From Candidatus Omnitrophota bacterium (GTDB taxonomy: Bacteria; Omnitrophota; Gorgyraeia; JAFGHF01): a stretch of DNA of 64,000 nucleotides. Below, piece after piece: positions 42,522 through 55,385 of the stretch; within the stretch, counting starts at the first letter, position 1; the number at the start of each line of letters is the position of its first letter. The position numbers and the translations under genes were made by a program. The notes under the pieces were generated by a model. The model saw nothing but the letters and a program-made list of their open reading frames with translations. It searched no databases and was not told where the DNA came from. The DNA is taken from the NCBI GenBank assembly GCA_020341815.1, contig CP070837.1:780954-844953 (forward strand), in the 5' to 3' direction.

Positions 42522-43367
42522 TTATCTGGCTGCGGCGCTTATTCTTTTTATTATCTTTTTGGCCAGTTCTGTATTGGGAATAATGATCTCTTCGTTTTTA
42601 TCGGATACGAGCTTTGTGGAAACTGCATTAACGGCCTCTACCCTCCCCGAGAGCGAATCACATTCTATAATATCCCCTTTTTTTAGTTCGTGCGAGAGCA
42701 GCCTTCCGTTAATCACATTGGACATCACTTCTTTCCCGGATACTAAAAAAATGAGGAAGAATCCCAGCGGTATTACGCCGAAAATTACGATTAATGATTC
42801 GGACATAACAAACCGGGAAACATTCAAATGTTCTAAAATGATGATTACGACAAATCCCAATACCGCATAACGCGCAATCGTCCCTAATAAAGAATGAATC
42901 GGAATATTTGCCAGATGTGCGGTCCTATCCACAAATCTAAACGCAAACTTGCTGATAAATACACCCAAAGCGAGGATAATTATCGCCACAACGACATTCG
43001 GTATATATAAAACGATATTTTGAATAAGTTGTGAGGTAACCTTTAAATCCAGGGCATCCTGAGCCATAATCAGCGTATTCAAAAGAATTATCCAGTAAAA
43101 AATATTTCCGATAAGCGCAGAAGGAGATTTCTTCAATCCTCCTTTTTCTAAGAATTTCTTAAATCCTGTCTTTTCCGAAAGCACGTCAAACCCAAAAGCC
43201 CTCAAGAGCTTAGTGATGATTTTTCTGATTATTACAGCGCAAATCCAGCCAAACAGAATAAGCGAAAGCGAAAAGGCAATCCCCGGACCATACTGGCTAA
43301 TAAAATTGTTAACCTGGCTGAATGACTGAACGACAAGATTATTGAAAATTTCTACAAACCTGTTCAT
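42522..43367 (-). CDS. Mechanosensitive ion channel (MscS family)
   Basis: 281 aa; three N-terminal TM helices followed by an MscS-like beta domain. Confidence 0.75.
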   Translation of the reverse strand: MNRFVEIFNNLVVQSFSQVNNFISQYGPGIAFSLSLILFGWICAVIIRKIITKLLRAFGFDVLSEKTGFKKFLEKGGLKKSPSALIGNIFYWIILLNTLIMAQDALDLKVTSQLIQNIVLYIPNVVVAIIILALGVFISKFAFRFVDRTAHLANIPIHSLLGTIARYAVLGFVVIIILEHLNVSRFVMSESLIVIFGVIPLGFFLIFLVSGKEVMSNVINGRLLSHELKKGDIIECDSLSGRVEAVNAVSTKLVSDKNEEIIIPNTELAKKIIKRISAAAR

Positions 43368-43393: not shown

Positions 43394-44917
43394 TTAATCT
43401 TCTCTGAAGAAATCCTTTATTTTATCCCATGGTTTTTTTACGATTTTTTCACCCTTATCCAGGACTTTTCCGATTTGCTGTTCTGATCTTCCCGCCAGCT
43501 CATCTGTAACCCTATCGAGTTTTCTTAGTACTCCTTCGCCTTTTTTCAGCTCAACCATTAAGAAATCGGCCGTGCCGCCAATTCCTGCCTGGGGGTTTAA
43601 GTCATTCTTAAGCTGCATAATTACCGCAACCGGCGTTGCCGCAGCCGGCTCTTTAACCTTAAGGATGAAGAATATAGTCAATATCTGCAGGGCCGATGAA
43701 AGCAGGAAAATCAGCTGCAGGTTTGATATATTATAACTATAAAAATTAAAATTGATGCCCTCGGTCATTTTGGATATGCTGCCTCCGACAATAGGGGCAA
43801 CTGCGCCCACAAATCCGGTAATCGCCGCAAATAAAGCCAAATATACAGAACGGCCCTCTTTAGGAGAAAGCTTGATGAGAATATTAAACTGGGAAAGGCT
43901 GACTCCCGCCATAAATGCCCCTGAAAGCAGGTGCGCGGTCAATACAGGCAGGTAGTATTTTCCCGGCAAGGCCAAAATCCAGATAAAGGGAACAAGTATC
44001 AAAATCCACCCGGAAACGATAATTATGGGCTTATTGCCCATTTTATCCGAGATAGGCCCCCAGATCTTCATCATAAAAAGCGTAGCCAGTGTGGCAAATG
44101 TCCCGAATATGGTAATATTCGAAAAATCTATCTTTAGATGCTCGATCATAAATACGCCGTAAAATGGTGCGGCAATCTGGATGGCAAACATCCAGGCAGA
44201 AACAAACAGGATTAAGGTGAGGAAGTTTCTGTCTTTTAAGGGCTGGAAAAAGAGGGAAAAGTTCAAGCTCTTACCTTCTTGGCGAACGGTGCTTTCGGTC
44301 TCGGGTATGCGCCACAAAAACCATACCGCTGCAAGCCCTGAGGCCAGCCCAGCGATAAAAAGCAAAATAAATCCGAAAGCATTCTGCGCGGAAAAGCGCC
44401 CCTCCCACATAGTAATAAACTTTCCGCCCAAAAGCACAACCACCATGCCGCAGGCAGAGGCAATCATATTGCGCCTGCCAAAATAACTGCCTCTGATATT
44501 TTCGGGCACCAAATCGCTCATCCAGGCAAGCCAGGACACGCCGGATAAAGAAGCAAAAACGCTTGAGGCCGCTATAACCCCCACCAATACCCAGATACGA
44601 GAATCCGTCAAAGGGGCAAATATGGCAAAGGGAAGTAATATTACTAAAATCCAAAGGGTTCGGCTCACCAAGAGCGAGAAAAAACAAAGTACCTTTTTTC
44701 TGCCGGTTTTTTCGATTATGATGGAGCCGAAAATCTGCGCCAGATTGGCAAAGAAAGGAAGGGAAGCCAGGATGCCTACCTGCTGTGCTGAGGCATTTAA
44801 TATCTTTAAGGCAAATCCCATCAGGAATATACCACCGGCCAAAGAACCCATAACTGCCGAAAGGGCTCCATCGATAACAGAAAGCCTAAGCGCCCTATTG
44901 GTCTGGTCTATGTCCAA
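43394..44917 (-). CDS. MFS transporter with C-terminal soluble extension
   Basis: 507 aa; about 12 TM segments, MFS-like loop (GRKKV); about 80-aa hydrophilic C-terminal tail. Confidence 0.7.
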   Translation of the reverse strand: MDIDQTNRALRLSVIDGALSAVMGSLAGGIFLMGFALKILNASAQQVGILASLPFFANLAQIFGSIIIEKTGRKKVLCFFSLLVSRTLWILVILLPFAIFAPLTDSRIWVLVGVIAASSVFASLSGVSWLAWMSDLVPENIRGSYFGRRNMIASACGMVVVLLGGKFITMWEGRFSAQNAFGFILLFIAGLASGLAAVWFLWRIPETESTVRQEGKSLNFSLFFQPLKDRNFLTLILFVSAWMFAIQIAAPFYGVFMIEHLKIDFSNITIFGTFATLATLFMMKIWGPISDKMGNKPIIIVSGWILILVPFIWILALPGKYYLPVLTAHLLSGAFMAGVSLSQFNILIKLSPKEGRSVYLALFAAITGFVGAVAPIVGGSISKMTEGINFNFYSYNISNLQLIFLLSSALQILTIFFILKVKEPAAATPVAVIMQLKNDLNPQAGIGGTADFLMVELKKGEGVLRKLDRVTDELAGRSEQQIGKVLDKGEKIVKKPWDKIKDFFRED

Positions 44918-44924
44918 GAACCGC

Positions 44925-45674
44925 TTACTCCTGATTGTTCTTTTCTGCCTCCTCAGGCAAAAGCTGCAGTATCTTCCTTATGCTATCTAATTTGCCGAAG
45001 CAGATAAGCTTATCACCAGATAAAATTCTATTTTCTGCGGAGGGATTGGGGATCATTTCCTTTCCCCGATCTCTTTCTATGGCCAATACGGTAATATCCT
45101 GCCTGCGCAACTCGGCTTCTCTCAATGATTGATTGACTACAGGGCTTTCTCTTCCGATTTCAATGCTTGATATCCCGTAACCGCCTGTAGTAACCAAAAG
45201 TTCCTCAAAGGAAACCGGCTTCACGATTTCAGTCTTTATAATACGCTTTTTAAGAAATTGCGTTAACCTTCTCGTAAAACGCGAATGTGTAAAAATTCTA
45301 TAGAGAGAATAAATGGAAATCACCACAATTAATAAATTTATATACGGCAGGAGAAAAGACGGAAATACTAAATGTGTAAGGGGAATATTAATTTTTGGCA
45401 AATAAGACGGGCGCAGGGTATTGGCAAAAGTCGCGATTAAGGTTACCAACCCGGCATTGCCCAATACCATAAGCACTGAAGCGATGCGGCGCCTTTGGGG
45501 ATTGCCCGTTATCAGCTCTGCCTCTTTTGTGGTAAAGCCTGTGCCGCTGAAGCAGGATAGCGACTGGAATTTCGCCAGGGACCATTCAAGCCCTGTCAAT
45601 TGAAAAGCAATCGCCCCGATTCTCACCGCTATAAAAGCAATAATAATTGTAACAATAAAAAGCAATAGATTCAT
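44925..45674 (-). CDS. Membrane protein with C-terminal TrkA-C (RCK_C)-like domain; putative ion channel/transporter
   Basis: 249 aa; N-terminal TM region with pore-like SGTGFTT segment; C-terminal RCK_C-like domain. Confidence 0.5.
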   Translation of the reverse strand: MNLLLFIVTIIIAFIAVRIGAIAFQLTGLEWSLAKFQSLSCFSGTGFTTKEAELITGNPQRRRIASVLMVLGNAGLVTLIATFANTLRPSYLPKINIPLTHLVFPSFLLPYINLLIVVISIYSLYRIFTHSRFTRRLTQFLKKRIIKTEIVKPVSFEELLVTTGGYGISSIEIGRESPVVNQSLREAELRRQDITVLAIERDRGKEMIPNPSAENRILSGDKLICFGKLDSIRKILQLLPEEAEKNNQE

Positions 45675-45912: not shown

Positions 45913-46977
45913 TTACATCCACTTCTTCTTCCTGAAGTACGCTATCATATAAATGGCAATTGCGCCGATAATAAACCACACCGCAGGATATCCGAACCGC
46001 CACTGCAACTCCGGCATATACCTGAAGTTCATTCCGTAAATACCGACAATAAAGGTCAGAGGAATAAATATCGTGGCTATAACGGTCAAGACCTTCATCA
46101 CCTCGTTCATTCTGTTGCTCACGCTGGAAAGATAAATATCCAACATGCCTGAGACTACATCCCTGTATGTCTCTATGGTATCGATGACCTGAACAGTATG
46201 GTCATATACATCGCGCAGGAATATGCGGGTTGGTTTTTTAATTAGCTTTGATTCGGAGCGCTCCAGAACACTGACTACTTCGCGCAGGGGCCAAACGGAC
46301 TTCCTTAAGAAGATGATGTCTCCTTTTAAGCGATGAATTATTTGTAAGGTTTTGGGGATGGGGTTAGCTATTATCCTCTCTTCCATGTCCCCTATTTTTT
46401 CTCCAGATTTTTCCAGAATAAGAAAATAATTATCCACGACCGCATCCATCAAGGAATAGACAAGATAATCCGCCCCTGCCCCTCTGATTCTGCTTTTGGC
46501 GTTTCTGATGCGCTCTCTTACATGATCGAATACATCGCCCTCTTTCTCCTGGAATGAAATAACAAAGTTAGAGCCTAAAACCAAACTCACCTGCTCGGCG
46601 TTGATTTCCCCTGCTTTTTCGTCAAAATAAAGCATTTTTAAAACGATAAATATATAACTTTCGAAATCTTCCAGTTTTGGCCTTTGGCCGGTATTAACGA
46701 TATCTTCCAACATCAAAGGATGAAATCCAAAGTGCTTGCCTATTTTCTCTATAATCTCTATATTGTGGATGCCGTCAATATTTATCCATGTGACTGTTGA
46801 GGTATCTCTAAAAGAAAAGCATTCCTCCGGCGCCTTTATTTCTTTCTCCTGAACTTGCTTCTCGTCATAATCGATAACTGTTATCTTTACGCGTTCGGTC
46901 CTTTTCTCTCCCACATGCATCAATGTTCCCGGGGCAAGGCCTATGGTTTTGGAAATTCTTTTAATCAATCGGGGCAT
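45913..46977 (-). CDS. corA: Magnesium/cobalt transporter CorA
   Basis: 354 aa; C-terminal two TM helices with the GMN motif (YGMNF). Confidence 0.85.
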   Translation of the reverse strand: MPRLIKRISKTIGLAPGTLMHVGEKRTERVKITVIDYDEKQVQEKEIKAPEECFSFRDTSTVTWINIDGIHNIEIIEKIGKHFGFHPLMLEDIVNTGQRPKLEDFESYIFIVLKMLYFDEKAGEINAEQVSLVLGSNFVISFQEKEGDVFDHVRERIRNAKSRIRGAGADYLVYSLMDAVVDNYFLILEKSGEKIGDMEERIIANPIPKTLQIIHRLKGDIIFLRKSVWPLREVVSVLERSESKLIKKPTRIFLRDVYDHTVQVIDTIETYRDVVSGMLDIYLSSVSNRMNEVMKVLTVIATIFIPLTFIVGIYGMNFRYMPELQWRFGYPAVWFIIGAIAIYMIAYFRKKKWM

Positions 46978-47013
46978 GATAATCGCTCCCTTTATAAAAA
47001 GATTAAATATATA

Positions 47014-49338
47014 CTAATAATAATACTGCTTTTTGCCGATGGGCGTGCGCCTTATAAAACTAAACCATTTTCCCGGGCTTATAGTAGTCTTTCTGCCGAA
47101 TATATAGATTTCCAATATTTTTTTCTTTTGAGAAACATTTTTAATTTTAACGCAATCATTTGTTAATTTGAGATTCAAAATATTGCCCTGCCAAAAAAGA
47201 CAAAACTCTAATGTATGCCAACTCAAAGGCATCCTTGGAGTTATGGATAATTTATCTTTCATTATCTTAACGCCCCCGAATCCAAAGATTACTGTCTGCC
47301 AGGTGCCGCCTAGAGAAGCTGCATGCACTCCTTCATGGCTATTGCCAAAGATATTACTGATATCTATATGAAGCGCTACATTAAAAAGGCTGTAGGCCTT
47401 TGGCAAGTCATACGCCTCACAAGCATTAAGCGCGGATACAGAAGGGCTTAAAGAAGAATTATGAGTAACCTTATTAATATAAAACTTGTAGTTGGCAATC
47501 TTTGTTTTATCATTAAAGTCTTCGCCTAGTAAATATAGAAGCATCAATACATCCGGCTGTTTAATTAGCTGGGTCTTGCTAAAATCTTCCGAACCCCAAT
47601 CTTTGGGTATAATGGGCAAGCCATTTTCATCGAACTTATCAAAAATTACTTTTTTCAATTTGAAATACCCGTCAAATTGCTCAATGAGGCCGCTTTTAGC
47701 TATCCTGAGTTTCAACCTTTGAGAAATGCGCTTCCAATCTATTGCTTCTTTATTTTCCAATGCCAGTTTTTCTTTTAGGTGTTTGAATAAATGGGTATTT
47801 TTCTTAAGCTTATTGAATAAATTGTAAGCAGTAATCAAGTTCCACCTTGCTATCATATTAGTATAGGCATTATTCTTTACATTTATATGGAACTCATCCG
47901 GGCCGATAATATTGGGGATTTCATATTTTGCGCGTTTCTTATTAAATTTTACCCTTGAAGCCCAGAAGCGCGCGGTCTCAAAAAGAACCTCATACCCGTA
48001 ATCTTCCATAAACTTCTCATCTTTTGTAACCACAAAGTATTTATAAAAAGCATAAGCCACATCAGCGGTAATATGGTGCTCCATCTGCTGGGTATGAATT
48101 GGGATAATCTTCCCGTTAATATCGGTTGACCATTCGGGAGTTTCCTCTTCGCCATTTCTTGCCGACTCCCAGGCAAACTTTGCCCCTTTAAAGCCTTCCT
48201 CTTGCGCCAGGGCGCGAGATTTATTCAGCCTTCTATAGCGGTACATGAGCATATTCTTGGCAATATCGGGGAAATTAAACAGGAAGAACGGAAAAACGAA
48301 TATCTCTGCATCCCAAAAGACATGCCCGCGATAACCTTCCCCGCTCAAAGTACGCGCAGCGATACTGGAGAAACCGTTATCACGCCATCCGCAAATAAGC
48401 ATGTGGTATATATTAAAGCGCAGGTTCTGCTGGATATTGGCGGTTCCCTTGACCAATACATCGGCCCTCTTCCAGGCTCTCTCCCACAGGCGCATATGTT
48501 CTGCAAGAAGCCTTGTGAAGTCCTCATGAAAAACTTTTCTAAACGCTTTCCTGGTTTGTGTCTTAATATTTGCAATATCCTGTTTATACGGAAAGTGCTT
48601 AATAAAGAATAATTTTGTAAATATAATAGGGTGATTTTTCTTGAGATGGATTTTAAATACATTGTCTTTGGCAAAAACTTTTTTTCCTTCGACCTCATAA
48701 TAAAATCCGCTCCGGAAGACTACAATGTGTTTTTTCTGAAGCGTCTCTATCGCCAGATATCCGGCATTATCCTCCTGCCCAAGCTCTCTTACCCGAAAAT
48801 GCTTTTTATATCCTTCGCTTAAGCGGGGTATATTGGAAACCGAAGTATCAATTCCTGTGTTAATATCAGCCGAACAGTCTTCGTCAAGCGAAGTCAGGAT
48901 AATCTGCATTACCCCGATATTTTTATCTTTCATAGACATAAATCTTAGAGACTGGTAATCAAATTGTCTTTTTTTTCTATCTCTATAAAGAGTGCGTTGT
49001 ACTAAAATTGCTTTTTTCATATTAAGGGTTCTGTTATGGCTGGCGACATCCATTGCGATTGCATCAAGCTTGTGCCCTTCGATAGTAAACTTAAAATTTA
49101 TTGGGTTAGGCAGATTGACCAGCTCATCGACCTGCGAGCCCATCTTATCATATAGCCCGGCAATATAAAGGCCCGGTATTGCTCCCACAGGCATATCGGC
49201 CAAAATACCCCGCGCCCCCAGATATCCATTACCCAGAGCAAACTGGCTTTCCCGTTTATTCTGAAGCTCTTTTGCCCATTCCGTTTCCTTTATCAGCCAG
49301 CGCTCATCCTGAATATAATCAGCATAGAAATCTTTCAT
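47014..49338 (-). CDS. Glycoside hydrolase family 65 disaccharide phosphorylase (maltose/kojibiose/trehalose phosphorylase-like)
   Basis: 774 aa; GH65-like N-terminal beta-sandwich, (alpha/alpha)6 barrel and C-terminal domain; substrate not assignable. Confidence 0.8.
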   Translation of the reverse strand: MKDFYADYIQDERWLIKETEWAKELQNKRESQFALGNGYLGARGILADMPVGAIPGLYIAGLYDKMGSQVDELVNLPNPINFKFTIEGHKLDAIAMDVASHNRTLNMKKAILVQRTLYRDRKKRQFDYQSLRFMSMKDKNIGVMQIILTSLDEDCSADINTGIDTSVSNIPRLSEGYKKHFRVRELGQEDNAGYLAIETLQKKHIVVFRSGFYYEVEGKKVFAKDNVFKIHLKKNHPIIFTKLFFIKHFPYKQDIANIKTQTRKAFRKVFHEDFTRLLAEHMRLWERAWKRADVLVKGTANIQQNLRFNIYHMLICGWRDNGFSSIAARTLSGEGYRGHVFWDAEIFVFPFFLFNFPDIAKNMLMYRYRRLNKSRALAQEEGFKGAKFAWESARNGEEETPEWSTDINGKIIPIHTQQMEHHITADVAYAFYKYFVVTKDEKFMEDYGYEVLFETARFWASRVKFNKKRAKYEIPNIIGPDEFHINVKNNAYTNMIARWNLITAYNLFNKLKKNTHLFKHLKEKLALENKEAIDWKRISQRLKLRIAKSGLIEQFDGYFKLKKVIFDKFDENGLPIIPKDWGSEDFSKTQLIKQPDVLMLLYLLGEDFNDKTKIANYKFYINKVTHNSSLSPSVSALNACEAYDLPKAYSLFNVALHIDISNIFGNSHEGVHAASLGGTWQTVIFGFGGVKIMKDKLSITPRMPLSWHTLEFCLFWQGNILNLKLTNDCVKIKNVSQKKKILEIYIFGRKTTISPGKWFSFIRRTPIGKKQYYY

Positions 49339-49349
49339 TATCTTTTCCT

Positions 49350-50411
49350 CTATCTTTGTAAGGACTTTTTATATATATTCAAATAATTCCTGGCCATGCT
49401 TTCTCTTGAAAAGTTCTTCTCGACATACTTTCGGCAAGTTTCCGGTTTGATTTTATCCAGTTTTCCTTCTTTGATGACGCTTACCATATCGTCTTCGGTA
49501 TCCACGCAATACCCTGTCTTGCCATCGATAATAACTTCGGGTGCCGCCCCCCGGCGCAAAGCAATAACCGGTGTTCCGCAGGCCAGCGACTCCAGCATTA
49601 CAAGACCGAACGGCTCTTCCCACTGGCTGGTAAAAAGGGTGCATCTTGCGCGTCTTAAAAGGTCAAATATCATGTGGCGAGGAAGCTCTTTCTGAAACTG
49701 GAAAAATAGGTGCTGAGGGTATTTCTCTATCCAGGGTAAAATCTCCTTTCTGAAGAACTCTTTTTCGAATTGCTCGGTCATCTTTACTGCCATAATAAGA
49801 TTCACGCCCGCTTTGCTTGCTACCCTGATAGCAAGATCCAAGCCTTTTTCCCAATTTACTCTTCCCACAAAAAGAAAAAAATCCTCTTTTTTCTTTTTCC
49901 ATTCAATAGGTTTTGCATTAATGCAGTTGTATACGGTATCTGCAAATCGAATATTTTTATTCAACATAAGATATAATTCCTTTTGCCTTTTTGAAATAGA
50001 GACAAAGTTGTTTTTAGGATTTTTTGACAGTTCCTCGCATCGAACAACCGAGGGTTCGTTTGCCGGCCCGTGAATGGTATAGATAACAGGGATATCTGCC
50101 AGGGGAATGTCCATTGTATGGCAGTGAATGATATCTACGCCTTCATATCCTGCCCGGGAAAAGGCATATTTAGCAATGAGCTCCGTCACGAAAGCCTTGG
50201 TTCTATCCTCAGAATCCAATCCAAAATAATATTCACTCTCAATATAAGGCATAAGGCGACAGGAAACCTTAGAGTCTTTAGCGGCAAAAAGTATCACCTC
50301 CTGACCCAGCTCGGTTAAACCTTCAACAAGATTGTAAATAACAAGTTCGGTTCCCCCATATTTAGGCGGCGGCACAGGAATCCAGGGCGGCGCTATAACT
50401 GCTATTTTCAT
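49350..50411 (-). CDS. Glycosyltransferase family 4 (paralog a)
   Basis: Track ORF from TTG 50426; ATG at 50411 gives MKIAVIAPPWIPVPPPKYGG; C-terminal GT-B EX7E-type region. Confidence 0.8.
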   Translation of the reverse strand: MKIAVIAPPWIPVPPPKYGGTELVIYNLVEGLTELGQEVILFAAKDSKVSCRLMPYIESEYYFGLDSEDRTKAFVTELIAKYAFSRAGYEGVDIIHCHTMDIPLADIPVIYTIHGPANEPSVVRCEELSKNPKNNFVSISKRQKELYLMLNKNIRFADTVYNCINAKPIEWKKKKEDFFLFVGRVNWEKGLDLAIRVASKAGVNLIMAVKMTEQFEKEFFRKEILPWIEKYPQHLFFQFQKELPRHMIFDLLRRARCTLFTSQWEEPFGLVMLESLACGTPVIALRRGAAPEVIIDGKTGYCVDTEDDMVSVIKEGKLDKIKPETCRKYVEKNFSRESMARNYLNIYKKSLQR

Positions 50412-50426
50412 TACAATCTCCCGCAA

Positions 50427-51485
50427 CTATTTTCTAGAAATAATATCCTTATAAAGGTCGAGGTATTTCTTGGCCATACGCTTCCTTGAGAAGTTCTCTT
50501 CAACATACTTGCGGCAATTTTCCGGCTTAATTGAATCTATCTTTTTTATTGCTTCCAGCATTTCATCCTCGGTATTGACAACAAAGCCTGTTTCTCTGTC
50601 CTTAATTATCTCGGGAGCGGAGCCTTTGCGGAAGGCAATAACCGGCGTGCCGCAGGCCATAGATTCAAGCATAACAATACCAAAGGGCTGCTCCCATTTG
50701 TCGCCCGTCAAAGTACACTTAGCGCGTCTTAGTAAATCCAGGAGACTCTCTCTGGGAATTTCATGATGAAGCTGGAAAAGAAGGTCTTTCGGATGCTTTG
50801 CTATTAACGGCTCTATTTCTTTCCTCATATATTCTTCCTCTTCTTCTTCGATTGTCTTAACAGCCATAATCAAACCGATCTTTGCGCGGGCAGCAATCCT
50901 GATTATCGTATCAAATCCCTTCTCCCAGCTGGCCCTGCCTATGCAAAGAAAAAAATCCTCCTTTTTATCCGACCATTTAATAGCTTTAACATTAATACTA
51001 GGATGGACGAAATCGGCAAATTTAATATTTTGATTTAACGTAGTATAAAGCTCTTTTTGCCTGTTTGATATAGCGACTAAATATTCTCTTTCGCCCTTTA
51101 ATAATTCGAGGCACTGCATCAAGGCCCCTTCTGTAGCTGTGCTATAGATGGTATGCACTACGGGCGTACTAACAGTAGATTTAAACATTGTATGGTCATG
51201 GATAATGTCAACCTTTTCGTATCCTGCCCGGGAAAAGGCGTATTTAAGAGCAAGCTCCCTCACAAAAGATTTTTCATCCGCAGGTGAATCCATGCCAAAA
51301 TGTATTGGGCTTTTAGTATAGGGATAGAATGGACAGGAAACTTTTGAATCCTTGTGCCCAAAGAAAATCACCTCTTCGCCCAATTCCCTCAGTCCTTCCA
51401 CGAGATTCCATACTACTATTTCTATGCCGCCATACTTAGGCGGCGGCACAGGAATCCAAGGCGGCGCTACAACTGCTATTTTCAT
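50427..51485 (-). CDS. Glycosyltransferase family 4 (paralog b)
   Basis: 352 aa; N-terminus MKIAVVAPPWIPVPPPKYGG nearly identical to paralog a; abuts paralog a with no gap. Confidence 0.8.
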   Translation of the reverse strand: MKIAVVAPPWIPVPPPKYGGIEIVVWNLVEGLRELGEEVIFFGHKDSKVSCPFYPYTKSPIHFGMDSPADEKSFVRELALKYAFSRAGYEKVDIIHDHTMFKSTVSTPVVHTIYSTATEGALMQCLELLKGEREYLVAISNRQKELYTTLNQNIKFADFVHPSINVKAIKWSDKKEDFFLCIGRASWEKGFDTIIRIAARAKIGLIMAVKTIEEEEEEYMRKEIEPLIAKHPKDLLFQLHHEIPRESLLDLLRRAKCTLTGDKWEQPFGIVMLESMACGTPVIAFRKGSAPEIIKDRETGFVVNTEDEMLEAIKKIDSIKPENCRKYVEENFSRKRMAKKYLDLYKDIISRK

Positions 51486-51499
51486 GCCTACGTTTCCTC

Positions 51500-54226
51500 T
51501 TAGTAATTCTCACCTGAACAGACAGAGAGTATCTCTTTTCTGGTTATGCAGCCAACTAAAGTCTTTCCTTTTACAACGGGAAGAAGCTGAAAAGAGCGTT
51601 CCGTAAAAAGACGAAGCGCTATCTCCACATGGTCGGATAAGTTGACATATTCAACGGATTTATTCATGATATCCTTGGCTTTTAGCTGGGCAAGGTCCTC
51701 TCTTTCGGTGACGCCAACGATATCTTTCTTCGAAATAATCCCGCAAAGCTGGTTATTAGCTTTGACAACAGGAACGCTACTTGCGTTCTTCTCCTTCAAT
51801 ACATGGCTGACTCTCTTTATAGGATCATTTTCATTGACGAATATTAGATTCTCTTCTCTAATTATATCTTTAAGGCGCTTTGCTGAAACCATAACAGCCT
51901 CCTTTCGCCCGATTTTTACTTTAATGGTTTTGAAAGGTTCTATAGAATAATTTTTCTCGAATATCCCAATCTGAATATTAGCATTTTTGGCCTGATTAGG
52001 ATAATAAGTCACTTCCACCTCTTTATTATTGAGAGCCAGTCTTAATAAGCTTTTTCCCCGGAATATCTTAAACTGCATAAGCTTCCAATGGGCGGGCAAG
52101 CGGGGATTAATTGTCAGCTTATTATCCTCAAAGCTTATGCCGGCAAACCCAAATATGGCTGCCTGCCAGATGCCGCCTGCATTTGCCATATGCATACCGC
52201 CATCGCTGTTATTGTGTAAATTTTTCAAGTCAATCTGGCTTGAAAAAAGGAAAAATAAATAGGCCCTTAAGCAATCGCCGAACTCGCTGGCTAAAAGGGC
52301 ATGGATTGAGGGGCTTAGAGAGGACTGATGAAGAGTCCGTTTTATATAATACTGGTAATTTTTTATTTTCTGCTCCCAGTCGAAACGCTGGGGCAGAAGA
52401 TAAAATAAAAATAAAACATCGGCCTGCTTAATAAATTGTGTCTTATCAAAGTCTTTATAAGACAAATGCTGCGGCGCTTCCGGCATAAAAAAATCGCTGT
52501 AACTTCTTATAGATATCTGCTTTTTTTTAAAATAACCTTTAAATTGCTCAATAATTCCCTCTTTGGGCTTGGGGATATAAATGTCTTTGGCAATATCTCT
52601 CCAGCCGTCAACTTCCCTTTCATGTAATCTTAAATTGTGCTCCAATCTATAAAAGGCGTCCGGGTATTTCTCTTTAATTTCATAATAAAGGGAACGGGCA
52701 TATTCCATATTCCAGGAAGCCAGGATATTGGTATAAAAATCATTTTTCACGCGCGTATGAAATTCATCCGGACCAATTACATCCAAAATCTCATATTTTT
52801 TCATTTTTTCATTGAAAGTTACGCAACTTGCCCAAAATCGGGCAGTGGAAAAAACAATTTCTGCACCATGATGGATAATGAAATCGAAATCATCTGTTGC
52901 CCGATAATAATTAAAAACGGCATAGGCAATATCTGCTGAGATATGGTGTTCGTAATCCATGGTCTCTACTTTCATAATAGTGCCGTCTGTGTCCTTGGCA
53001 TAGCGCAGCGTTACCTCATCGCCAATTGATGCAGATTGCCAGGGAAATAAAGCGCCTTTATAATTTCTTTTTTTGGCATTGGCTATTGCCTGACTTAAGC
53101 GCTTATATCGGTACAAAAGCATATTCTTCGCCATAGGCGGGTCCGTATAAAGATAAAAGGGGAGCATAAAAATCTCGGAATCCCAGAAGATATGACCCCT
53201 ATAGCCCTGGCCGCTGAGGGCGCGCGCGCCGATGCTCATAGGAAAATTACCTTTGTAAGCGGCAATAATAAGGTGATATATGTTAAGGCGCAAGGCCTTA
53301 TCGCTTAACTTGTCTCCTTTGATTGTAACGTTTGCCTGCTCCCATCTTCTTTTCCATTCCTCGACATGTTCCTTCAGGCTTTCTTGGAGGCCTCGGGAAC
53401 TAGTCTCCTTGAGTAAACGCAAGCTCTTCTCTTTAAGTTCTCCGACATGGTGTTGTAAAGATGTGTTTATTGTAAATACTTTTGTAAATGTGATAGTCTC
53501 GCCCTTCTGTAGTTCAAAATTATGGGCTCTATCATGAAGCAGCATCTGATTTGAGTTTTTTTCCACAAAAAGCCTGTCGGCATATGCAACCCAGATCTTT
53601 GAAGTTATGGTCCTATAGGCATAATAGTTAATTTCATTTTTTGTATCGGCATCCATTAAACGCATATGCCTTCTTGTTCCATAAACCAGGCCGCCGTAAT
53701 TAGTAGCTGAATCATCCAGAAAATCCAGTGCGGTAACTTCGGCTTTGCCGTTTAAGAGGGTTAAGGAGACTTTCATCCAGCCGATATGAGGGTTTTTCAT
53801 GTTAAAAAAACGCAAAGATTGATACAGAAACTTTCTGTTTTTTCCGTCTTTAAAAAGCGTCTTGCGCACCAGAAGACCTTTATGCATATCCAGATAACGC
53901 ACATGCTTAAGAAATCCCATGAAATGCATGTCAAGCTTTTCTCCCTCGACCGCAAAAATAAAATGGATGGGATTGGGAAGATTGACCAATTCTTCTACCT
54001 GCGCACCGGATTTATCGTAAATGCCGGTAATAAATGTGCCAGGCATTGCTCTTTCAGGATACTCCTCAAGGACACCTCTTGAGCCGATAAATCCATTTCC
54101 CAGGGTAAATATTGACTCCTGGGTATGCTGTTCATCAAGCCCGAAGGAAGTCTCTTTTATAAGCCATTCGGGCGAAGAAAGACTAATTCCAAAAAAATCT
54201 TTCGTATTAAAATATTCTTTTTTCAT
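51500..54226 (-). CDS. GH65-family phosphorylase fused to a C-terminal CBS-domain pair
   Basis: 908 aa; N-terminal about 770 aa collinear with the GH65 ORF at 47014..49338 (shared ELVNLPNPI and other blocks); C-terminal about 130 aa has two CBS-like repeats. Confidence 0.8.
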   Translation of the reverse strand: MKKEYFNTKDFFGISLSSPEWLIKETSFGLDEQHTQESIFTLGNGFIGSRGVLEEYPERAMPGTFITGIYDKSGAQVEELVNLPNPIHFIFAVEGEKLDMHFMGFLKHVRYLDMHKGLLVRKTLFKDGKNRKFLYQSLRFFNMKNPHIGWMKVSLTLLNGKAEVTALDFLDDSATNYGGLVYGTRRHMRLMDADTKNEINYYAYRTITSKIWVAYADRLFVEKNSNQMLLHDRAHNFELQKGETITFTKVFTINTSLQHHVGELKEKSLRLLKETSSRGLQESLKEHVEEWKRRWEQANVTIKGDKLSDKALRLNIYHLIIAAYKGNFPMSIGARALSGQGYRGHIFWDSEIFMLPFYLYTDPPMAKNMLLYRYKRLSQAIANAKKRNYKGALFPWQSASIGDEVTLRYAKDTDGTIMKVETMDYEHHISADIAYAVFNYYRATDDFDFIIHHGAEIVFSTARFWASCVTFNEKMKKYEILDVIGPDEFHTRVKNDFYTNILASWNMEYARSLYYEIKEKYPDAFYRLEHNLRLHEREVDGWRDIAKDIYIPKPKEGIIEQFKGYFKKKQISIRSYSDFFMPEAPQHLSYKDFDKTQFIKQADVLFLFYLLPQRFDWEQKIKNYQYYIKRTLHQSSLSPSIHALLASEFGDCLRAYLFFLFSSQIDLKNLHNNSDGGMHMANAGGIWQAAIFGFAGISFEDNKLTINPRLPAHWKLMQFKIFRGKSLLRLALNNKEVEVTYYPNQAKNANIQIGIFEKNYSIEPFKTIKVKIGRKEAVMVSAKRLKDIIREENLIFVNENDPIKRVSHVLKEKNASSVPVVKANNQLCGIISKKDIVGVTEREDLAQLKAKDIMNKSVEYVNLSDHVEIALRLFTERSFQLLPVVKGKTLVGCITRKEILSVCSGENY

Positions 54227-54234
54227 AAGGAAGG

Positions 54235-54882
54235 TTATTTAAATAACTTCTCAAGTGTCATATGATCTATTTTTGATAGGTCATCTACTACAATAGTTGC
54301 TTTTTTGAGTCTTTCGGCAGTGCCATAACGGTCAATGCCTACGCAAAGCATTTTCCCATTTATTGCGGCCTCAACGCCCAATACGGCATCTTCAAAAACG
54401 ACACATTCCTGATAGCCACATCCGATTCTGTCTGCGGCAAGCTGAAAAATCTGCGGGTCCGGCTTTCCCCTCTTGAGGTCATTGCCGTCCACTATGGCAT
54501 CCGCCAGCTTGATAATTCCTGTCTTTTGCAGGATTTTCTTGCAATTACGGCTTGAGGAAGCAATGGCAATCTTCTTATTGTGCCTTTTCAGCTCTTTGAT
54601 TAAATCCAGAGAGGAATTATATATGTCAATCTCTCCTTTTTCCAATAGCTCAAGGAAATATCTTTGCTTTTTATCGCCTGCTTTTTTTATCTCTGCATCG
54701 CTAAGGCCGGTCAAGATTGCCTTGGTGCCGTCATATCTGGGGATGCCGTCAACCTTGGCTTTATAGTCATCGAAGCTAAACTCTATTCCGTAATCGGAAA
54801 AAAGCTTCTTCCAGGCCTTAAAATGCAAGGGCACAGTATTTACTATTACCCCATCTAAATCAAATATTGCCGCTTTAAACAT
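54235..54882 (-). CDS. pgmB: Beta-phosphoglucomutase (HAD family)
   Basis: 215 aa; HAD motif I AIFDLDGVIV and a beta-PGM-like cap; RBS GAGG. Confidence 0.8.
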   Translation of the reverse strand: MFKAAIFDLDGVIVNTVPLHFKAWKKLFSDYGIEFSFDDYKAKVDGIPRYDGTKAILTGLSDAEIKKAGDKKQRYFLELLEKGEIDIYNSSLDLIKELKRHNKKIAIASSSRNCKKILQKTGIIKLADAIVDGNDLKRGKPDPQIFQLAADRIGCGYQECVVFEDAVLGVEAAINGKMLCVGIDRYGTAERLKKATIVVDDLSKIDHMTLEKLFK

Positions 54883-54893
54883 TATTCTGCCTC

Positions 54894-54927
54894 AATAAAA
54901 AACCCTCGAACTTTTTAGATTCGAGGG
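54894..54927 (-). terminator. Terminator/attenuator hairpin directly 5' of the pgmB RBS
   Basis: Minus-strand RNA CCCUCGAA-UCUAAAAAG-UUCGAGGG (perfect 8-bp stem) followed by UUUUUUAUU, which runs into the pgmB SD. Confidence 0.45.
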
Positions 54928-54938
54928 GGCCGGAACTA

Positions 54939-54959
54939 ATATCCAAAAAGTTCGGATAT
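54939..54959 (-). promoter_or_regulatory. Upstream hairpin whose loop is complementary to the terminator loop/3' arm (candidate antiterminator element)
   Basis: ATATCC-N9-GGATAT hairpin; its 9-nt loop (GAACUUUUU on the RNA) is the exact reverse complement of AAAAAGUUC in the downstream terminator hairpin. Confidence 0.35.
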
Positions 54960-55018
54960 TGTATACTGTTTTAATCTTACCAAATACAATTTATAATTGC
55001 AAGCAAAACATGCGAAAT

Positions 55019-55056
55019 AAGAAGGGCTGGCCGTGCGCATATAGCCAACCCTTCTT
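55019..55056 (-). terminator. Candidate terminator hairpin downstream of the small membrane protein gene
   Basis: Inverted repeat aagaagggctgg-N14-ccaacccttctt (11/12 complementary), about 34 nt after the stop at 55090; weak U-tract. Confidence 0.3.
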
Positions 55057-55089
55057 ATTTGAGTCTTACAGAACCTGAATTGCTTGGTG

Positions 55090-55339: not shown

Positions 55340-55367
55340 TATTGTAGCACCAACCTAATTTAAGTCA
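55340..55367 (-). promoter_or_regulatory. Candidate promoter for the small membrane protein gene
   Basis: Minus strand reads TTGACT-N16-TGcTACAAT (extended -10). Confidence 0.4.
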
Positions 55368-55385
55368 AGCTAAAATGAATATTAA

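Follow-up and report, generated by a model that had tools for sequence, protein, structure and literature searches.

We propose that six genes on one strand of a 64,000-nucleotide stretch of Candidatus Omnitrophota DNA (hereafter the window) encode a cytoplasmic cycle for synthesis and breakdown of an alpha-1,2-glucoside, which would act as a compatible solute, a small carbon store or both; we put the probability of this reading at roughly 0.55. The genes encode a pgmB-like enzyme, a GH65 protein fused to a CBS pair (GH65-CBS), two glycosyltransferases (GT4-a and GT4-b), a second GH65 protein (GH65-2) and CorA. Judged by homology and conserved residues, the synthetic (GT4) and degradative (GH65) halves appear to point independently to alpha-1,2-glucosides. 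Cyanobacterial sucroglucans offer an analogy for the product, likely a chain of the kojioligosaccharide type that probably starts from a non-reducing disaccharide (sucrose or trehalose, for example). An earlier sequence-only reading had proposed synthesis and recycling of an alpha-glucoside rather than simple maltose catabolism. Our results support this proposal, and none of the outcomes it had named as contrary (a C terminus that does not fold as a CBS pair, ordinary maltose phosphorylases, or GT4 genes from an unrelated polysaccharide pathway) was observed. To that reading we add the predicted alpha-1,2 linkage, a probably non-catalytic GT4, a probable place for corA in the operon, and the finding that the GH65-CBS fusion is rare yet not unique.

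Operon layout and ion-transport neighbors

The five co-directional genes described from sequence (pgmB, GH65-CBS, two GT4 genes and a second GH65) are all present, with exact coordinates, on the minus strand, and are transcribed in the order pgmB-like, GH65-CBS, GT4-a, GT4-b, GH65-2. The features of the locus are:

54903..54927, minus strand: terminator-like hairpin and U-run, a leader element ~20 nt upstream of the pgmB ATG
54235..54882, minus strand: pgmB-like HAD enzyme, 215 aa, operon gene 1 (Pfam HAD_2/Hydrolase)
51500..54226, minus strand: GH65-CBS, 908 aa, with GH65 at residues 1 to ~770 and a C-terminal CBS pair
53036..53038, minus strand: codon CAA for Q397 of GH65-CBS, at the position of CsKP E392 (WET motif)
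51512..51889, minus strand: CBS pair (Bateman module), residues ~780-905 of GH65-CBS
50427..51485, minus strand: GT4-a, 352 aa, TeGSS-family paralog with a degenerate catalytic site
49350..50411 (ATG) or ..50426 (TTG), minus strand: GT4-b, 353 or 358 aa, TeGSS-family, catalytic set complete
47014..49338, minus strand: GH65-2, 774 aa, kojibiose-phosphorylase-like, WET motif
45913..46977, minus strand: corA Mg2+/Co2+ transporter (TIGR00383)
44925..45674, minus strand: TrkA_C-domain membrane protein (Pfam), downstream neighbor, associated context
43394..44917, minus strand: MFS transporter (Pfam), downstream neighbor, associated context
42522..43367, minus strand: MscS-type mechanosensitive channel (Pfam), downstream neighbor, associated context

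Pfam E-values for the five proteins ranged from 1e-20 to 1e-114, far beyond chance, with GH65 N, central and C domains in both GH65 proteins and Glycos_transf_1 plus Glyco_transf_4 in both GT4s; none of the five (pgmB-like to GH65-2) matched a Pfam membrane-protein family. The two GH65 genes flank both GT4 genes, and the spacers measure 0-15 nt. The claim that the GT4 genes have no intergenic gap holds if GT4-b starts at TTG 50426, but not with ATG 50411, which leaves a 15-nt spacer; this ATG is the likelier start because it is preceded by GGGAG and agrees with a 353-aa NCBI protein.

We observed that corA (TIGR00383 score 343.4, cutoff 200.75) follows GH65-2 after only 36 nt and has its own GGGAG, and no terminator-like site was found in this spacer, so that corA is probably the sixth gene of one transcript with the five. 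At the other end, no terminator-like site within 42000-56000 is stronger than the hairpin in the pgmB leader, which has 9 pairs, 5 of them G-C; the leader has a fold z-score of -2.76 and matched no Rfam family.

Ion-transport genes recur beside the module in relatives, whose loci are numbered with the prefix L. In L001 the same pair, MFS (844 bits) and MscS (393 bits), is found upstream of GH65-CBS; in L105 a GH65-2-type gene has an MscS gene directly next to it, and in L005 (Elusimicrobiota) an MgtE gene adjoins the GT4 pair. Other modules are accompanied by a Na/Ca exchanger (L098), a cation-chloride cotransporter (L100) or a K+ channel with TrkA domains (L101), and the distinct loci with ion/osmoregulation genes next to the module number at least seven. 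A part for Mg2+ import in osmoadaptation is documented (PMC8844918). Through guilt by association in these recurrent neighborhoods, corA and the neighboring MFS, MscS and TrkA_C genes would tie the cycle to ion/osmotic homeostasis.

Kojibiose-type phosphorylases, the CBS fusion and the pgmB-like enzyme

The two GH65 proteins are 41% identical, and the best PDB match of both was the kojibiose phosphorylase of C. saccharolyticus (CsKP, 3WIQ), at 582 bits for GH65-CBS and 550 bits for GH65-2. The second-best GH65 structure was 2-O-alpha-glucosylglycerol phosphorylase (4KTP, 343-351 bits), and maltose phosphorylase (1H54) scored only 279 and 252 bits, respectively. An AF2 model of GH65-CBS (mean pLDDT 83.5, pTM 0.88) matched 3WIQ/3WIR in Foldseek with TM 0.92-0.93. 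With residue roles taken from a GH65 review (PMC11442529) and in CsKP numbering, both proteins keep the catalytic acid E483, the -1 subsite (F342, W343, D344, K596, Q597) and the phosphate site (K330R, Y337, S631, S632, H675); the 14 diagnostic residues of GH65-2 are those of CsKP save the conservative K330R. All kojibiose phosphorylases and hydrolases are reported to share the +1 motif WET, whereas maltose, trehalose and nigerose enzymes have MVI, WRA and WEF (PMC11442529). WET is carried by GH65-2 and 119/120 relatives, and GH65-CBS has WQT. At the level of diagnostic residues, GH65-CBS and GH65-2 are kojibiose (alpha-1,2)-type phosphorylases. As the sequence-only reading had anticipated, the bit scores and WET/WQT motifs indicate that neither protein is an ordinary maltose phosphorylase; a hydrolase identity was likewise rejected, both being kojibiose-type phosphorylases.

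The Q at the E392 position is unique to the GH65-CBS of the window, with E in all 28 fusion and 92 non-fusion relatives, and its CAA codon is one base from GAA. Mutation of E392 in CsKP lowered kojibiose activity to <2.1% (PMC11442529). Given this Q, the window's GH65-CBS may have a different substrate or low activity. CsKP-type enzymes accept higher kojioligosaccharides. The kojibiose phosphorylase of T. brockii adds glucose to O-2 of the glucose unit in sucrose and related sugars (PMC1994063), so enzymes of this type are known to be able to phosphorolyze glucosylsucrose-type compounds. GH65-2 belongs to a large Omnitrophota family (>120 matches, 56-64% identity), with orthologs after GT4a-GT4b in L104 and within the L001 cluster. 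The latter cluster also contains a DSP/PTP-like phosphatase and a DAGK/YegS-like kinase.

The C terminus of GH65-CBS folds as the CBS pair that had been read from its sequence: Pfam found two CBS stretches (residues ~786-901 of 908, E = 5e-20), and AF2 predicted beta-alpha-beta-beta-alpha twice (pLDDT 82-94, residues ~780-905). The pair, with motifs GIISKKDI and GCITRKEI, aligns with the CBS pairs of 28/28 fusion proteins. Its best PDB match was MJ1225 (3KH5, E = 4e-11), which we take to be an adenylate-binding relative of the AMPK gamma subunit. An exact match to GH65-CBS, from a Candidatus Omnitrophota bacterium MAG, is annotated "CBS domain-containing protein". That a CBS pair on a GH65 enzyme is unusual was borne out by a search of 1.84 billion representatives, which gave ~5 clusters at 50% identity; the fusions are largely monophyletic.

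The pgmB-like protein passed subfamily TIGR02009 (177.5, cutoff 153.35) and scored 156.8 against the bPGM equivalog TIGR01990, under its cutoff of 189.4. Its best PDB match was L. lactis beta-PGM (1LVH, 103 bits), with which it is identical at D8, D10, T16, H20, G46, R49, S114, S116, N118, K145, E169 and D170; K117 is replaced by R. On these residues, this HAD enzyme is a probable beta-phosphoglucomutase. Orthologs of pgmB (55% identity) adjoin GH65-CBS in L102 and L103, in keeping with the earlier claim of a functional link between beta-PGM and GH65. The L102 locus is flanked by stress and chaperone genes, not ion genes.

The GT4 pair and its recurrence with GH65

GT4-a and GT4-b are 59% identical over their full length and, as described from sequence, have near-identical N termini (MKIAVVAPPWIPVPPPKYGGIE versus MKIAVIAPPWIPVPPPKYGGTE). 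The best PDB match of both, also at full length, was TeGSS (8X3Q/7FG9), at 178.8 bits and 38% identity for GT4-b and 154.8 bits and 35% identity for GT4-a. The next-best match of GT4-b reached 72 bits, and TeGSS is the sole strong solved relative of both. TeGSS is a soluble alpha-1,2-glucosyltransferase, crystallized as a homodimer, whose product is a salt-induced oligosaccharide; it yields oligomers, more than a trisaccharide. GT4-b retains W10, Y18, H115, R179, K184, E256 and E264, and with them the UDP-binding and catalytic residues of TeGSS, and is a probable NDP-glucose alpha-1,2-glucosyltransferase. An alpha-linkage made by a retaining GT-B enzyme needs an alpha-linked donor, so that, of the two donors the sequence-only reading had left to choose between, NDP-glucose is expected for GT4-b, not beta-G1P.

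GT4-a carries H115Y, G116S and E256Q. H115 and E256 are both present in 79/79 distant family members, and 88/90 b-type sequences have E256; in the a-type clade, Q256 is found in 20/20 members and H115Y in at least 80%, while R179 is lost from 5/20. Y115 and Q256 are found in the a-type copies of the window, L001 and L104, and in L005 and L007, too, one member of the tandem GT4 pair, the second, is degenerate. In TeSPS, His158 binds the 6-OH and Glu331 the 3-OH of the donor glucose, and H158A and E331A abolish activity (PMC7264703); we took these residues as the equivalents of H115 and E256. How much the first Glu of EX7E matters differs among GT4 enzymes (PMC8760489), so GT4-a could still be active. 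Orthologs from different genomes share 59-66% identity for the a-type and 73-76% for the b-type, and the a-type value indicates genes under constraint, not pseudogenes. Judging by these substitutions, GT4-a probably serves GT4-b as a partner that is non-catalytic or altered. The acceptor-pocket signature of cyanobacterial GSS orthologs (Y/H70, E74, T119, N122) is not retained in either GT4; the acceptor and, strictly, even the linkage are predictions.

The module recurs in Omnitrophota and Elusimicrobiota. A TeGSS-family GT4 directly adjoins GH65-CBS in 5/7 distinct loci (window, L001, L003, L005, L087), and in the remaining two (L102, L103) pgmB adjoins it without a GT4. With L104, where GT4a-GT4b-GH65-2 are ordered as in the window, GT4-GH65 adjacency is found in six loci from two phyla and in several orientations. 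This recurrence, together with TeGSS as the only strong characterized relative, argues against GT4 genes of an unrelated polysaccharide pathway. Several further GH65-CBS and GT4 proteins have matching lengths for their longest contigs, a proxy which suggests that they share contigs. Among close GT4 relatives, those in L098 and L100 have no GH65 neighbor, and L099 has a GH15 instead. No GH65 lay within 10 kb of distant GT4-family members (0/79; 31-39% identity to GT4-b, tblastn), so the wider family is not generally tied to kojibiose phosphorylases. As a clue to the acceptor, GT4 genes of relatives adjoin, in L003 and L101, a gene that joins an SPS-type GT domain to a PfkB kinase and, in L001 and L098, a TreT-like synthase, and mannosylglycerate genes are adjacent or nearby in L005; no sucrose or trehalose synthesis gene was found within the 64-kb window.

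A proposed make-and-break cycle and its alternatives

In the proposed cycle, GT4-b would move glucose from NDP-glucose to O-2 of a glucosyl acceptor, as homology to TeGSS and the conserved catalytic residues suggest. GT4-a, without the donor-sugar ligands H115 and E256, would probably bind the acceptor or regulate, perhaps as a heterodimer with GT4-b, for which the TeGSS precedent is a homodimer. Both GH65 proteins would strip alpha-1,2-glucosyl units with phosphate to give beta-glucose 1-phosphate, their actual substrates being predicted, and probably split the work by chain length or acceptor. Beta-phosphoglucomutase would convert beta-G1P to glucose 6-phosphate, as its conserved residues and conserved adjacency suggest. 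The CBS pair, a putative sensor, would gate degradation in response to a signal inside the cell, for example adenine nucleotides, c-di-AMP or ionic strength.

Identical enzymology would serve a storage polymer, a longer intracellular alpha-1,2-glucan that replaces glycogen and is mobilized by the CBS-gated phosphorylase according to energy charge, much as AMP acts on glycogen phosphorylase, with the ion neighbors incidental. The oligomers made by TeGSS, the higher kojioligosaccharides accepted by CsKP-type enzymes, the match to the presumably adenylate-binding MJ1225 and the flanks of L102 all fit a polymer. However, at least seven distinct loci have ion/osmoregulation genes next to the module, compatible-solute synthases lie near it (SPS-like, TreT-like, and the mannosylglycerate genes of L005), and branching and debranching functions are absent. 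We consider storage unlikely as the main role, although it and an osmolyte role are not mutually exclusive. Somewhat less probable is another chemistry, in which the GT4s act on glycerate, glycerol, inositol, lipid or protein or form a linkage other than alpha-1,2, and the GH65s act on that glucoside or on, for example, trehalose or nigerose. The acceptor-ring residues of TeGSS are not conserved, GH65-CBS has WQT in place of WET, a glucosylglycerol enzyme ranks second among GH65 structures, and the phosphatase and kinase of L001 hint at a phosphorylated or lipid intermediate. Yet the WET of GH65-2 and 119/120 relatives is the motif reported for kojibiose enzymes, with MVI, WRA and WEF in those for maltose, trehalose and nigerose, 4KTP scores far under 3WIQ, glucosylglycerol too has a 2-O-alpha linkage, and the five proteins lack a Pfam membrane-protein match.

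We give less weight still to a purely catabolic locus, in which the GH65s and beta-PGM, a classical catabolic pairing (PMC11442529), digest imported kojibiose or alpha-1,2-glucans, as in T. brockii koj and E. coli ycj, and the GT4s are unrelated envelope-polysaccharide genes that were inserted. The same-strand MFS transporter ~2 kb downstream and the loci with GH65-CBS and pgmB but no GT4 are consistent with this, but the GT4 genes are closely packed between both GH65 genes, their adjacency is kept across two phyla, the window has no sugar ABC transporter, binding protein or secreted glycosidase, and the closest characterized GT is no envelope enzyme but a soluble synthase of oligosaccharides. 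Lastly, the GH65s could run in reverse, with beta-PGM supplying beta-G1P from G6P for synthesis of alpha-1,2-glucosides without nucleotide sugars, and the GT4s only priming or capping. Phosphorolysis is reversible, kojibiose phosphorylases readily form kojioligosaccharides in vitro, and pgmB is the first gene; however, on general biochemical grounds cytoplasmic phosphate normally favors phosphorolysis, the intact NDP-sugar transferase GT4-b would be left without a necessary role, and sequences do not distinguish reaction direction. We regard this reversal as very improbable.

Overall, our analyses favor the make-and-break cycle of an alpha-1,2-glucoside. Cyanobacterial sucroglucans are salt-induced solutes that accumulate reversibly (PMC4390843), and the adjacency of GT4 and SPS-type genes in relatives of the window mirrors that of tll1590 (SPS) and tll1591 (GSS) in T. 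elongatus.

The operon and its counterparts in related loci

We found five back-to-back ORFs at 47014-54882, all on the minus strand and with unambiguous Pfam assignments, as the sequence-only reading of this stretch had described; a corA gene follows them on the same strand.

Genes of the operon (window positions, in transcription order)
54882..54235, minus strand, pgmB-like HAD protein (beta-phosphoglucomutase-like), 215 aa, first in transcription order
54226..51500, minus strand, GH65-CBS (GH65 fused to a C-terminal CBS pair), 908 aa, assigned by Pfam
51485..50427, minus strand, GT4-a, 352 aa, assigned by Pfam
50411/50426..49350, minus strand, GT4-b, 353 or 358 aa, assigned by Pfam
49338..47014, minus strand, GH65-2 (second GH65, without CBS), 774 aa, assigned by Pfam
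46977..45913, minus strand, corA, 36 nt past GH65-2, with its own GGGAG

The two GT4 proteins are 59% identical to each other, and the two GH65 proteins 41%. The GT4 genes are adjacent, as had been noted, but the absence of any gap between them probably does not hold: GT4-b most likely starts at ATG 50411, which has a GGGAG in front and agrees with the 353-aa NCBI protein, and this start leaves a 15-nt spacer. GH65-CBS, GT4-a and GH65-2 have exact database matches (from a Candidatus Omnitrophota MAG), and GT4-b matches as a start-codon variant. Given the 36-nt spacer and the GGGAG in front of corA, and the lack of a terminator-like site in the interval between GH65-2 and corA, the transcription unit therefore probably comprises six genes.

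Within the 14-kb region, the terminator-like hairpin that ranks strongest lies at 54903-54927 on the minus strand, ~20 nt before the pgmB start codon, in the leader (54883-55005). It consists of CCCTCGAA, a loop and TTCGAGGG, followed by TTTTTTATT. It may act as an attenuator of the operon, or else as an additional terminator for the DUF378 gene upstream. By eye, AAAAAGTTC, from the loop and 3' arm, has a potential pairing partner further upstream, GAACTTTTT, in an antiterminator-like arrangement; this alternative pairing was absent from the minimum-energy fold of the leader, which is modestly stable (z = -2.76). We observed no riboswitch or other known RNA at the Rfam gathering threshold anywhere in the window, and only chance-level matches at a relaxed threshold in 54800-55420.

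A 64-aa membrane ORF of DUF378 (55090-55284, minus strand, E = 1.8e-22) immediately precedes the operon; it has its own promoter-like site at 55368..55341 (10/12 matches, TG present) and a hairpin that looks by eye like a terminator at ~55015-55055. Further upstream, the minus-strand genes at 55386-59549 encode a MacB-type ABC transporter, an HlyD-family adaptor and an outer-membrane efflux protein, that is, a tripartite efflux system with no evident link to the sugar operon. At 28879-32757 (minus strand), the gene for a GAF-ANTAR RNA-binding regulator (30689..31393) sits between those for glutamate dehydrogenase and a glutamate-synthase-domain protein; another GAF-ANTAR gene lies near a GH65-2-type locus in a different genome (L105, 15865-16572), and these placements may point to antitermination control linked to nitrogen. 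In the window, real plus-strand genes of 150 aa or more are confined to those at 37296-40102, encoding an inverse-autotransporter (intimin/invasin-like) beta-domain protein with Ig-like repeats and then a PLD-family protein, and one at 40635..41396. Among the 52 ORFs of at least 150 aa scanned in the window, a scan that left out two short plus-strand ORFs overlapping minus-strand genes, there were no genes for the synthesis of sucrose, trehalose or UDP-glucose.

Gene neighbourhoods of the module were compared across related loci from other genomes.

The module in the window and in related loci (taxonomic labels in the text are those of the source records)
Window: pgmB / GH65CBS / GT4a / GT4b / GH65-2 / corA, then TrkA_C protein, MFS, MscS
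L001/L002: MFS / MscS / histidine kinase / two response regulators / GH65CBS / GT4a / GT4b / TreT-like / DSP-type phosphatase / DAGK-like kinase / PGM-PMM / ... / GH65-2
L003/L004: GT4 (divergent) / GH65CBS / GT4 / SPS-type GT-PfkB kinase fusion; second such fusion nearby
L005/L006: GH65CBS convergent with two GT4; then MgtE; mannosylglycerate genes nearby
L087: GH65CBS / GT4a / GT4b
L098: TreT-like / GT4a / GT4b / DUF481 / Na-Ca exchanger
L099: GT4 / GH15 with trehalase-like N-domain
L100: cation-chloride cotransporter / GT4
L101: GT4 convergent with SPS-type-PfkB, then K+ channel with TrkA domains
L102: HSP20 / ClpB / DnaJ / pgmB / GH65CBS
L103: GH65CBS / pgmB
L104: GT4a / GT4b / GH65-2
L105: MscS / GH65-2-type / a different GT4 / ... 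/ MFS

A GT4 gene is adjacent in 5/7 distinct GH65-CBS loci, and pgmB in the other 2/7. The order GT4a then GT4b is kept in the window and in L001, L087, L088, L089, L098 and L104; a metagenome scan with GT4-b as the single query gave three useful loci only (L087-L089).

Several neighbours suggest variants of the pathway. The SPS-type domains (TIGR02472, 305-312 bits, scored on two copies) and the TreT-like proteins (NF041139, 413-431 bits, cutoff 775) score below curated cutoffs, and so we name them SPS-like and TreT-like only. SPS-type GT4-PfkB fusions of ~810-820 aa (L003, 317-2782 and 13790-16234; L101, 5515-7950) adjoin a GT4 of the family of TeGSS, a soluble alpha-1,2-glucosyltransferase; their PfkB part resembles fructokinase or IolC, and the fusion might couple acceptor phosphorylation to disaccharide-phosphate synthesis. 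In two Omnitrophota loci, a TreT-like homolog is directly beside GT4a-GT4b (L001, 14924-17541; L098, 7698-8906), and the genes that follow it in L001, for a phosphatase (DSP/PTP), a DAGK/YegS-like kinase and PGM/PMM, hint at a trehalose-based or phosphorylated variant. In L099 (10001-12909), a close single relative of GT4-b has a GH15 gene with a trehalase-like N-domain directly after it, instead of GH65, and the two genes may represent a hydrolytic version of this make-and-break arrangement.

The phosphorylases, the CBS pair and the mutase-like protein

Pfam PF03636, PF03632 and PF03633 (the N-terminal, central (alpha/alpha)6 and C-terminal domains of GH65) matched both GH65 proteins, with E down to 1e-114. 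The best PDB relative of both is the kojibiose phosphorylase (EC 2.4.1.230) of C. saccharolyticus (CsKP, 3WIQ), at 582 bits for GH65-CBS and 550 bits for GH65-2, versus 343-351 bits for glucosylglycerol phosphorylase and 252-279 bits for maltose phosphorylase. An AlphaFold2 model of GH65-CBS (mean pLDDT 83.5, pTM 0.88) matched 3WIQ/3WIR in Foldseek with a TM of 0.92-0.93. Residue roles were taken from a 2024 GH65 review (PMC11442529, Table 2), with the CsKP numbering verified in the alignment. The catalytic acid E483 and the -1 subsite (F342, W343, D344, K596, Q597) are identical to CsKP in both proteins, and the phosphate site (CsKP K330, Y337, S631, S632, H675) reads R, Y, S, S, H in both, K330R being a conservative change common to many relatives. 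Hydrolases have a catalytic base where phosphorylases have the phosphate-binding site (PMC11442529), and the retention of the catalytic acid, the -1 subsite and the phosphate site marks both GH65 proteins as phosphorylases, not hydrolases.

The WET motif of the +1 subsite (W391, E392, T417) is intact in 119 of the best 120 relatives and in GH65-2; the GH65-2 family is large and well conserved in Omnitrophota (at least 120 matches at 56-64% identity). The GH65-CBS of the window reads WQT, with Q397 in place of E392 (codon CAA, 53036-53038, minus strand, one base from GAA). We observed Q at this position in no other of the 28 fusion and 92 non-fusion sequences that make up the best 120, the other 27 fusions being WET, and E392Q is therefore ruled out as a trait of the CBS-fused clade. 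Since E392 substitutions reduce the activity of CsKP on kojibiose to <2.1% (PMC11442529), the window GH65-CBS may have altered specificity or low activity if Q397 is a real lineage-specific change; it is either that or an assembly error. With WQT in place of WET, we therefore call this protein kojibiose-phosphorylase-like rather than a confirmed member. The PDB ranking and the diagnostic residues rule out a maltose, trehalose or glucosylglycerol phosphorylase or a GH65 hydrolase, in line with the earlier reading against simple maltose catabolism.

Residues ~780-905 of GH65-CBS hold two Pfam PF00571 CBS stretches (E = 5e-20), and the AlphaFold2 model of this region runs beta-alpha-beta-beta-alpha twice (pLDDT 82-94), a predicted fold that agrees with the C-terminal CBS pair first proposed from the sequence. 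The fusion had also been thought unusual, and the database search bore this out: when we compared the C-terminal 219 residues with 1.84 billion representatives, GH65_C and the CBS pair were matched together in only ~5 clusters at 50% identity. The architecture is rare and narrow; this count excludes a common fusion, and a unique one is ruled out by its presence in 28/120 best relatives, from Omnitrophota (51-70% identity) and Elusimicrobiota (42-46%), per the source annotations. In a quick neighbour-joining tree of the GH65 core, 25/28 fusions fell into one clade, and all 28 CBS pairs align with one another. The term "CBS" does not occur in the 2024 review (PMC11442529), and we found no paper that combines "CBS domain" with GH65 in the literature searched; going by these sources, the CBS pair has no counterpart in any characterised GH65.

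The CBS motifs, GIISKKDI and GCITRKEI, follow the generic G-h-h-S/T-x-x-D/E pattern only. The best NCBIfam CBS match, to the c-di-AMP-binding CbpB, was weak (55.7 bits vs a cutoff of 125), and all specific NCBIfam CBS models scored far below their cutoffs, so that no CBS ligand is assignable from sequence; OpuCA CBS structures were among the PDB matches of GH65-CBS.

For the HAD protein, the best PDB match was L. lactis beta-phosphoglucomutase (EC 5.4.2.6; 1LVH), aligned end to end at 103 bits. The protein keeps D8 and D10 (nucleophile and acid-base), T16, H20, G46, R49, S114, S116, N118, K145, E169 and D170, with the substitutions K45D, S52G and K117R. It reached the NCBIfam subfamily TIGR02009 (177.5 vs 153.35) and missed the equivalog TIGR01990 (156.8 vs a cutoff of 189.4). 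The pgmB gene adjoins GH65-CBS in the window, L102 and L103. These conserved residues and the adjacency in three loci are consistent with the functional coherence of GH65 and beta-phosphoglucomutase that had been suggested for this block.

The GT4 tandem and its likeness to TeGSS

The only strong solved relative of both GT4 proteins was TeGSS (7FG9/8X3Q; glucosylsucrose synthase family, with alr1000), at 178.8 bits for GT4-b and 154.8 bits for GT4-a, with the next family at 72 bits; the match spans chain residues 4-340 at 35-38% identity. TeGSS makes the cyanobacterial salt- and heat-induced glucosylsucroses (sucroglucans), and its gene, tll1591, adjoins the sucrose-phosphate synthase gene tll1590 (PMC9909042).

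In TeGSS numbering, GT4-b keeps W10, Y18, H115, R179, K184, E256 and E264, a complete catalytic and donor-binding set. GT4-a keeps W10, Y18, R179 and K184, and carries H115Y, G116S and E256Q. We observed that H115 and E256 were invariant in 79/79 distant family members among the matches listed and that E256 was kept in 88/90 b-type (GT4-b-like) sequences; all 20 a-type (GT4-a-like) sequences had Q256, and five of the 20 had also lost R179. [quoted passage not shown] We infer that H115 and E256 of TeGSS are their equivalents, the Glu from a shared E-P-F-G context and the His from conservation only. With the importance of the first Glu of EX7E varying among GT4 enzymes (PMC8760489), GT4-a is likely, not certainly, inactive; given H115Y and E256Q, we treat it as a TeGSS homolog that should not be classed among the active synthases.

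L005 from Elusimicrobiota (Y18S, H115Y, R179Y, E256D) and L007 (H115Y, R179H, K184Q) likewise have a degenerate copy, as the second GT4 of their tandem pairs. Between genomes, b-type orthologs are 73-76% identical; a-type orthologs are still 59-66% identical and are therefore constrained, not decaying, genes. We read the pair as one catalytic subunit with a non-catalytic or altered partner.

Cyanobacterial orthologs are 58-66% identical to TeGSS and have in common an acceptor ring of Y/H70, E74, T119 and N122, a signature kept in 12 cyanobacterial loci with minor variation at E74 and N122. Positions 70, 74 and 119 are K, R and T in GT4-a and K, T and N in GT4-b; position 122, where the alignment is unstable, is never N (Q or L in GT4-a, R or V in GT4-b). 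The acceptor-ring signature is not kept, and sucrose is therefore not established as the acceptor; the window GT4s belong to the same broad family as TeGSS without being its orthologs.

We also observed a GH65 gene within 10 kb in 0/79 more distant TeGSS-family loci among the matches listed, which came from Actinomycetota, Nostoc, Paraburkholderia, candidate-phyla-radiation (CPR) lineages and others; that they included no Omnitrophota is a limit of this sampling, not a sign of absence. On these listed loci, the GH65 link is thus specific to the Omnitrophota/Elusimicrobiota clade, and a general linkage of TeGSS-family GT4s to GH65 is ruled out.

A candidate alpha-1,2-glucoside cycle

Two independent lines converge on alpha-1,2 chemistry: the nearest characterised transferase forms alpha-1,2 bonds, and the genetically coupled phosphorylases bear the kojibiose signature. 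For the GT4s, an alpha-1,2 product made from UDP-glucose has only the indirect support of this conserved linkage. The simplest reading of the operon is a make-and-break alpha-1,2-glucoside cycle. GT4-b, with GT4-a, would transfer glucose from an NDP-glucose to an acceptor to form an alpha-1,2-glucoside; GH65-2 and GH65-CBS would use phosphate to split the glucoside into beta-glucose 1-phosphate (beta-G1P) and the acceptor; PgmB would convert beta-G1P to glucose 6-phosphate (G6P); and the CBS pair would gate the degradation. The sequence-only reading had proposed that an alpha-glucoside is made and recycled under allosteric control, and the comparisons made here support this proposal and sharpen it to a likely alpha-1,2-glucoside.

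With beta-G1P as donor, the kojibiose phosphorylase of T. brockii glucosylates sucrose, kestose, raffinose and related sugars at O-2 of their glucose residue (PMC1994063). Run backwards, this reaction is a phosphorolysis of 2-alpha-glucosylated compounds of the sucrose type, which therefore counts among the known capacities of such enzymes. Sucroglucans accumulate reversibly after salt addition (PMC4390843), and neither this review passage nor the TeGSS paper (PMC9909042) names a sucroglucan-degrading enzyme.

Mg2+ transporters of two unrelated families adjoin the module in two phyla: CorA in the window (45913-46977), whose gene is probably co-transcribed, and MgtE beside the GT4 pair in Elusimicrobiota (L005, 15003-16364). 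Other ion systems beside close relatives are an MscS channel, a cation-chloride cotransporter, a K+ channel with TrkA domains and a Na/Ca exchanger. A published study (PMC8844918) links Mg2+ homeostasis to osmoadaptation, and the recurrence of MscS, MFS, K+, Mg2+ and Na+/Ca2+ genes next to the module suggests that it has a role in osmotic or ionic homeostasis. We put forward a tentative reading, at a probability of roughly 0.3: in Omnitrophota and Elusimicrobiota, a heteromeric GT4 synthase (a catalytic subunit and a pseudo-enzyme) would build sucroglucan- or kojioligosaccharide-like solutes, and a kojibiose-type phosphorylase gated by its CBS pair would release them when signalled by a nucleotide, c-di-AMP or ionic strength, in coordination with mechanosensitive channels and Mg2+/K+ transport, a system that would be previously undescribed.

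The same enzymology would serve the turnover of a storage glucan, which differs from the solute cycle in physiology only and which we consider unlikely. A cycle built on a different acceptor draws on the loss of the TeGSS acceptor ring in the GT4s, on the WQT variant of the window GH65-CBS and on the phosphatase and kinase genes of L001; we hold it to be quite unlikely. A purely catabolic locus is disfavoured and improbable, because the GT4 genes are interleaved with the GH65 genes, in conserved adjacency, and no uptake or secreted components are present. Synthesis by reverse phosphorolysis is compatible with the sequences but highly improbable; it would leave an intact GT4-b without a necessary role.

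Every protein family in the operon is already known. In the literature searched, we found no description of a CBS-fused GH65 or of any GH65 enzyme with a regulatory domain, of a conserved coupling of TeGSS-family GT4s with kojibiose-type phosphorylases, of an intact/degenerate GT4 tandem, or of a Mg2+ transporter gene that is (probably) co-transcribed with such a module. If the solute cycle is correct, GH65-CBS would be the first GH65 enzyme under regulation, and glucosylsucrose-type solutes would gain their missing route of degradation; the genetic link itself names a testable candidate route for the breakdown of sucroglucans, whose synthase was identified only in 2022, or of kojioligosaccharides. 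A CBS-gated phosphorylase would amount to compact allosteric control of compatible-solute or reserve turnover, and in the GT4 pair we see a clean candidate for a soluble sugar pathway with a pseudo-enzyme partner. There is demand for kojibiose phosphorylases and alpha-1,2-glucosyltransferases in the production of rare prebiotic sugars, so that new pairs, possibly with new acceptors, would be of practical value. The module also adds concrete, testable physiology for Omnitrophota, to our knowledge a phylum known only from uncultured genomes. Overall, the finding has a solid basis and can be tested directly; it does not amount to a categorically new kind of biology.

Among known systems, CsKP shares with GH65-CBS its three-domain GH65 architecture and fold at 39% identity, and with both window proteins the catalytic acid, -1 subsite and phosphate site (save K330R), as well as WET with GH65-2. 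It differs in that GH65-CBS has an extra C-terminal CBS pair of ~130 residues, in the WQT of the window copy, and in that the window GH65 genes accompany glycosyltransferases, not an uptake system. Genes for 1,3-alpha-oligoglucan phosphorylase often adjoin a nigerose phosphorylase gene, suggesting sequential breakdown (PMC11442529). The window likewise has two GH65 paralogs at one locus, whereas their specificity is of the alpha-1,2 type; by analogy, GH65-CBS and GH65-2 could divide the labour between oligomers and disaccharides. We know of no separate alpha-1,2-oligoglucan phosphorylase. The window HAD protein resembles L. lactis PgmB (1LVH/1O08) in its catalytic and distal phosphate residues (save K117R) and in a gene that lies beside genes for putative beta-G1P-producing phosphorylases; it differs in falling below the equivalog cutoff, and in K45D, S52G and K117R.

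The likeness to TeGSS comprises homology over the full ~350 aa, W10, Y18, R179 and K184 in both paralogs, H115 and E256 in GT4-b, a GT4 that in relatives adjoins an SPS-type synthase as in tll1590-tll1591, and a salt- or stress-related physiological context. In contrast to TeGSS, the window has a tandem of one intact and one degenerate copy, and the GH65 link seen here is absent from the cyanobacterial loci among the matches listed. GtfA/GtfB, which act in the glycosylation of streptococcal serine-rich adhesins, form a pair of catalytic and non-catalytic GT-B proteins. The window GT4s are similarly adjacent GT-B paralogs, one with the catalytic residues and the other conserved without them, although the substrate class differs. 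AMP-regulated glycogen phosphorylase offers a functional analogy only, in the logic of its control. In OpuA/OpuCA, MgtE and CbpB, a tandem CBS (Bateman) module is likewise joined to a protein that serves solute or ion homeostasis, whereas in the window the module is fused to a glycoside phosphorylase, not to a transporter.
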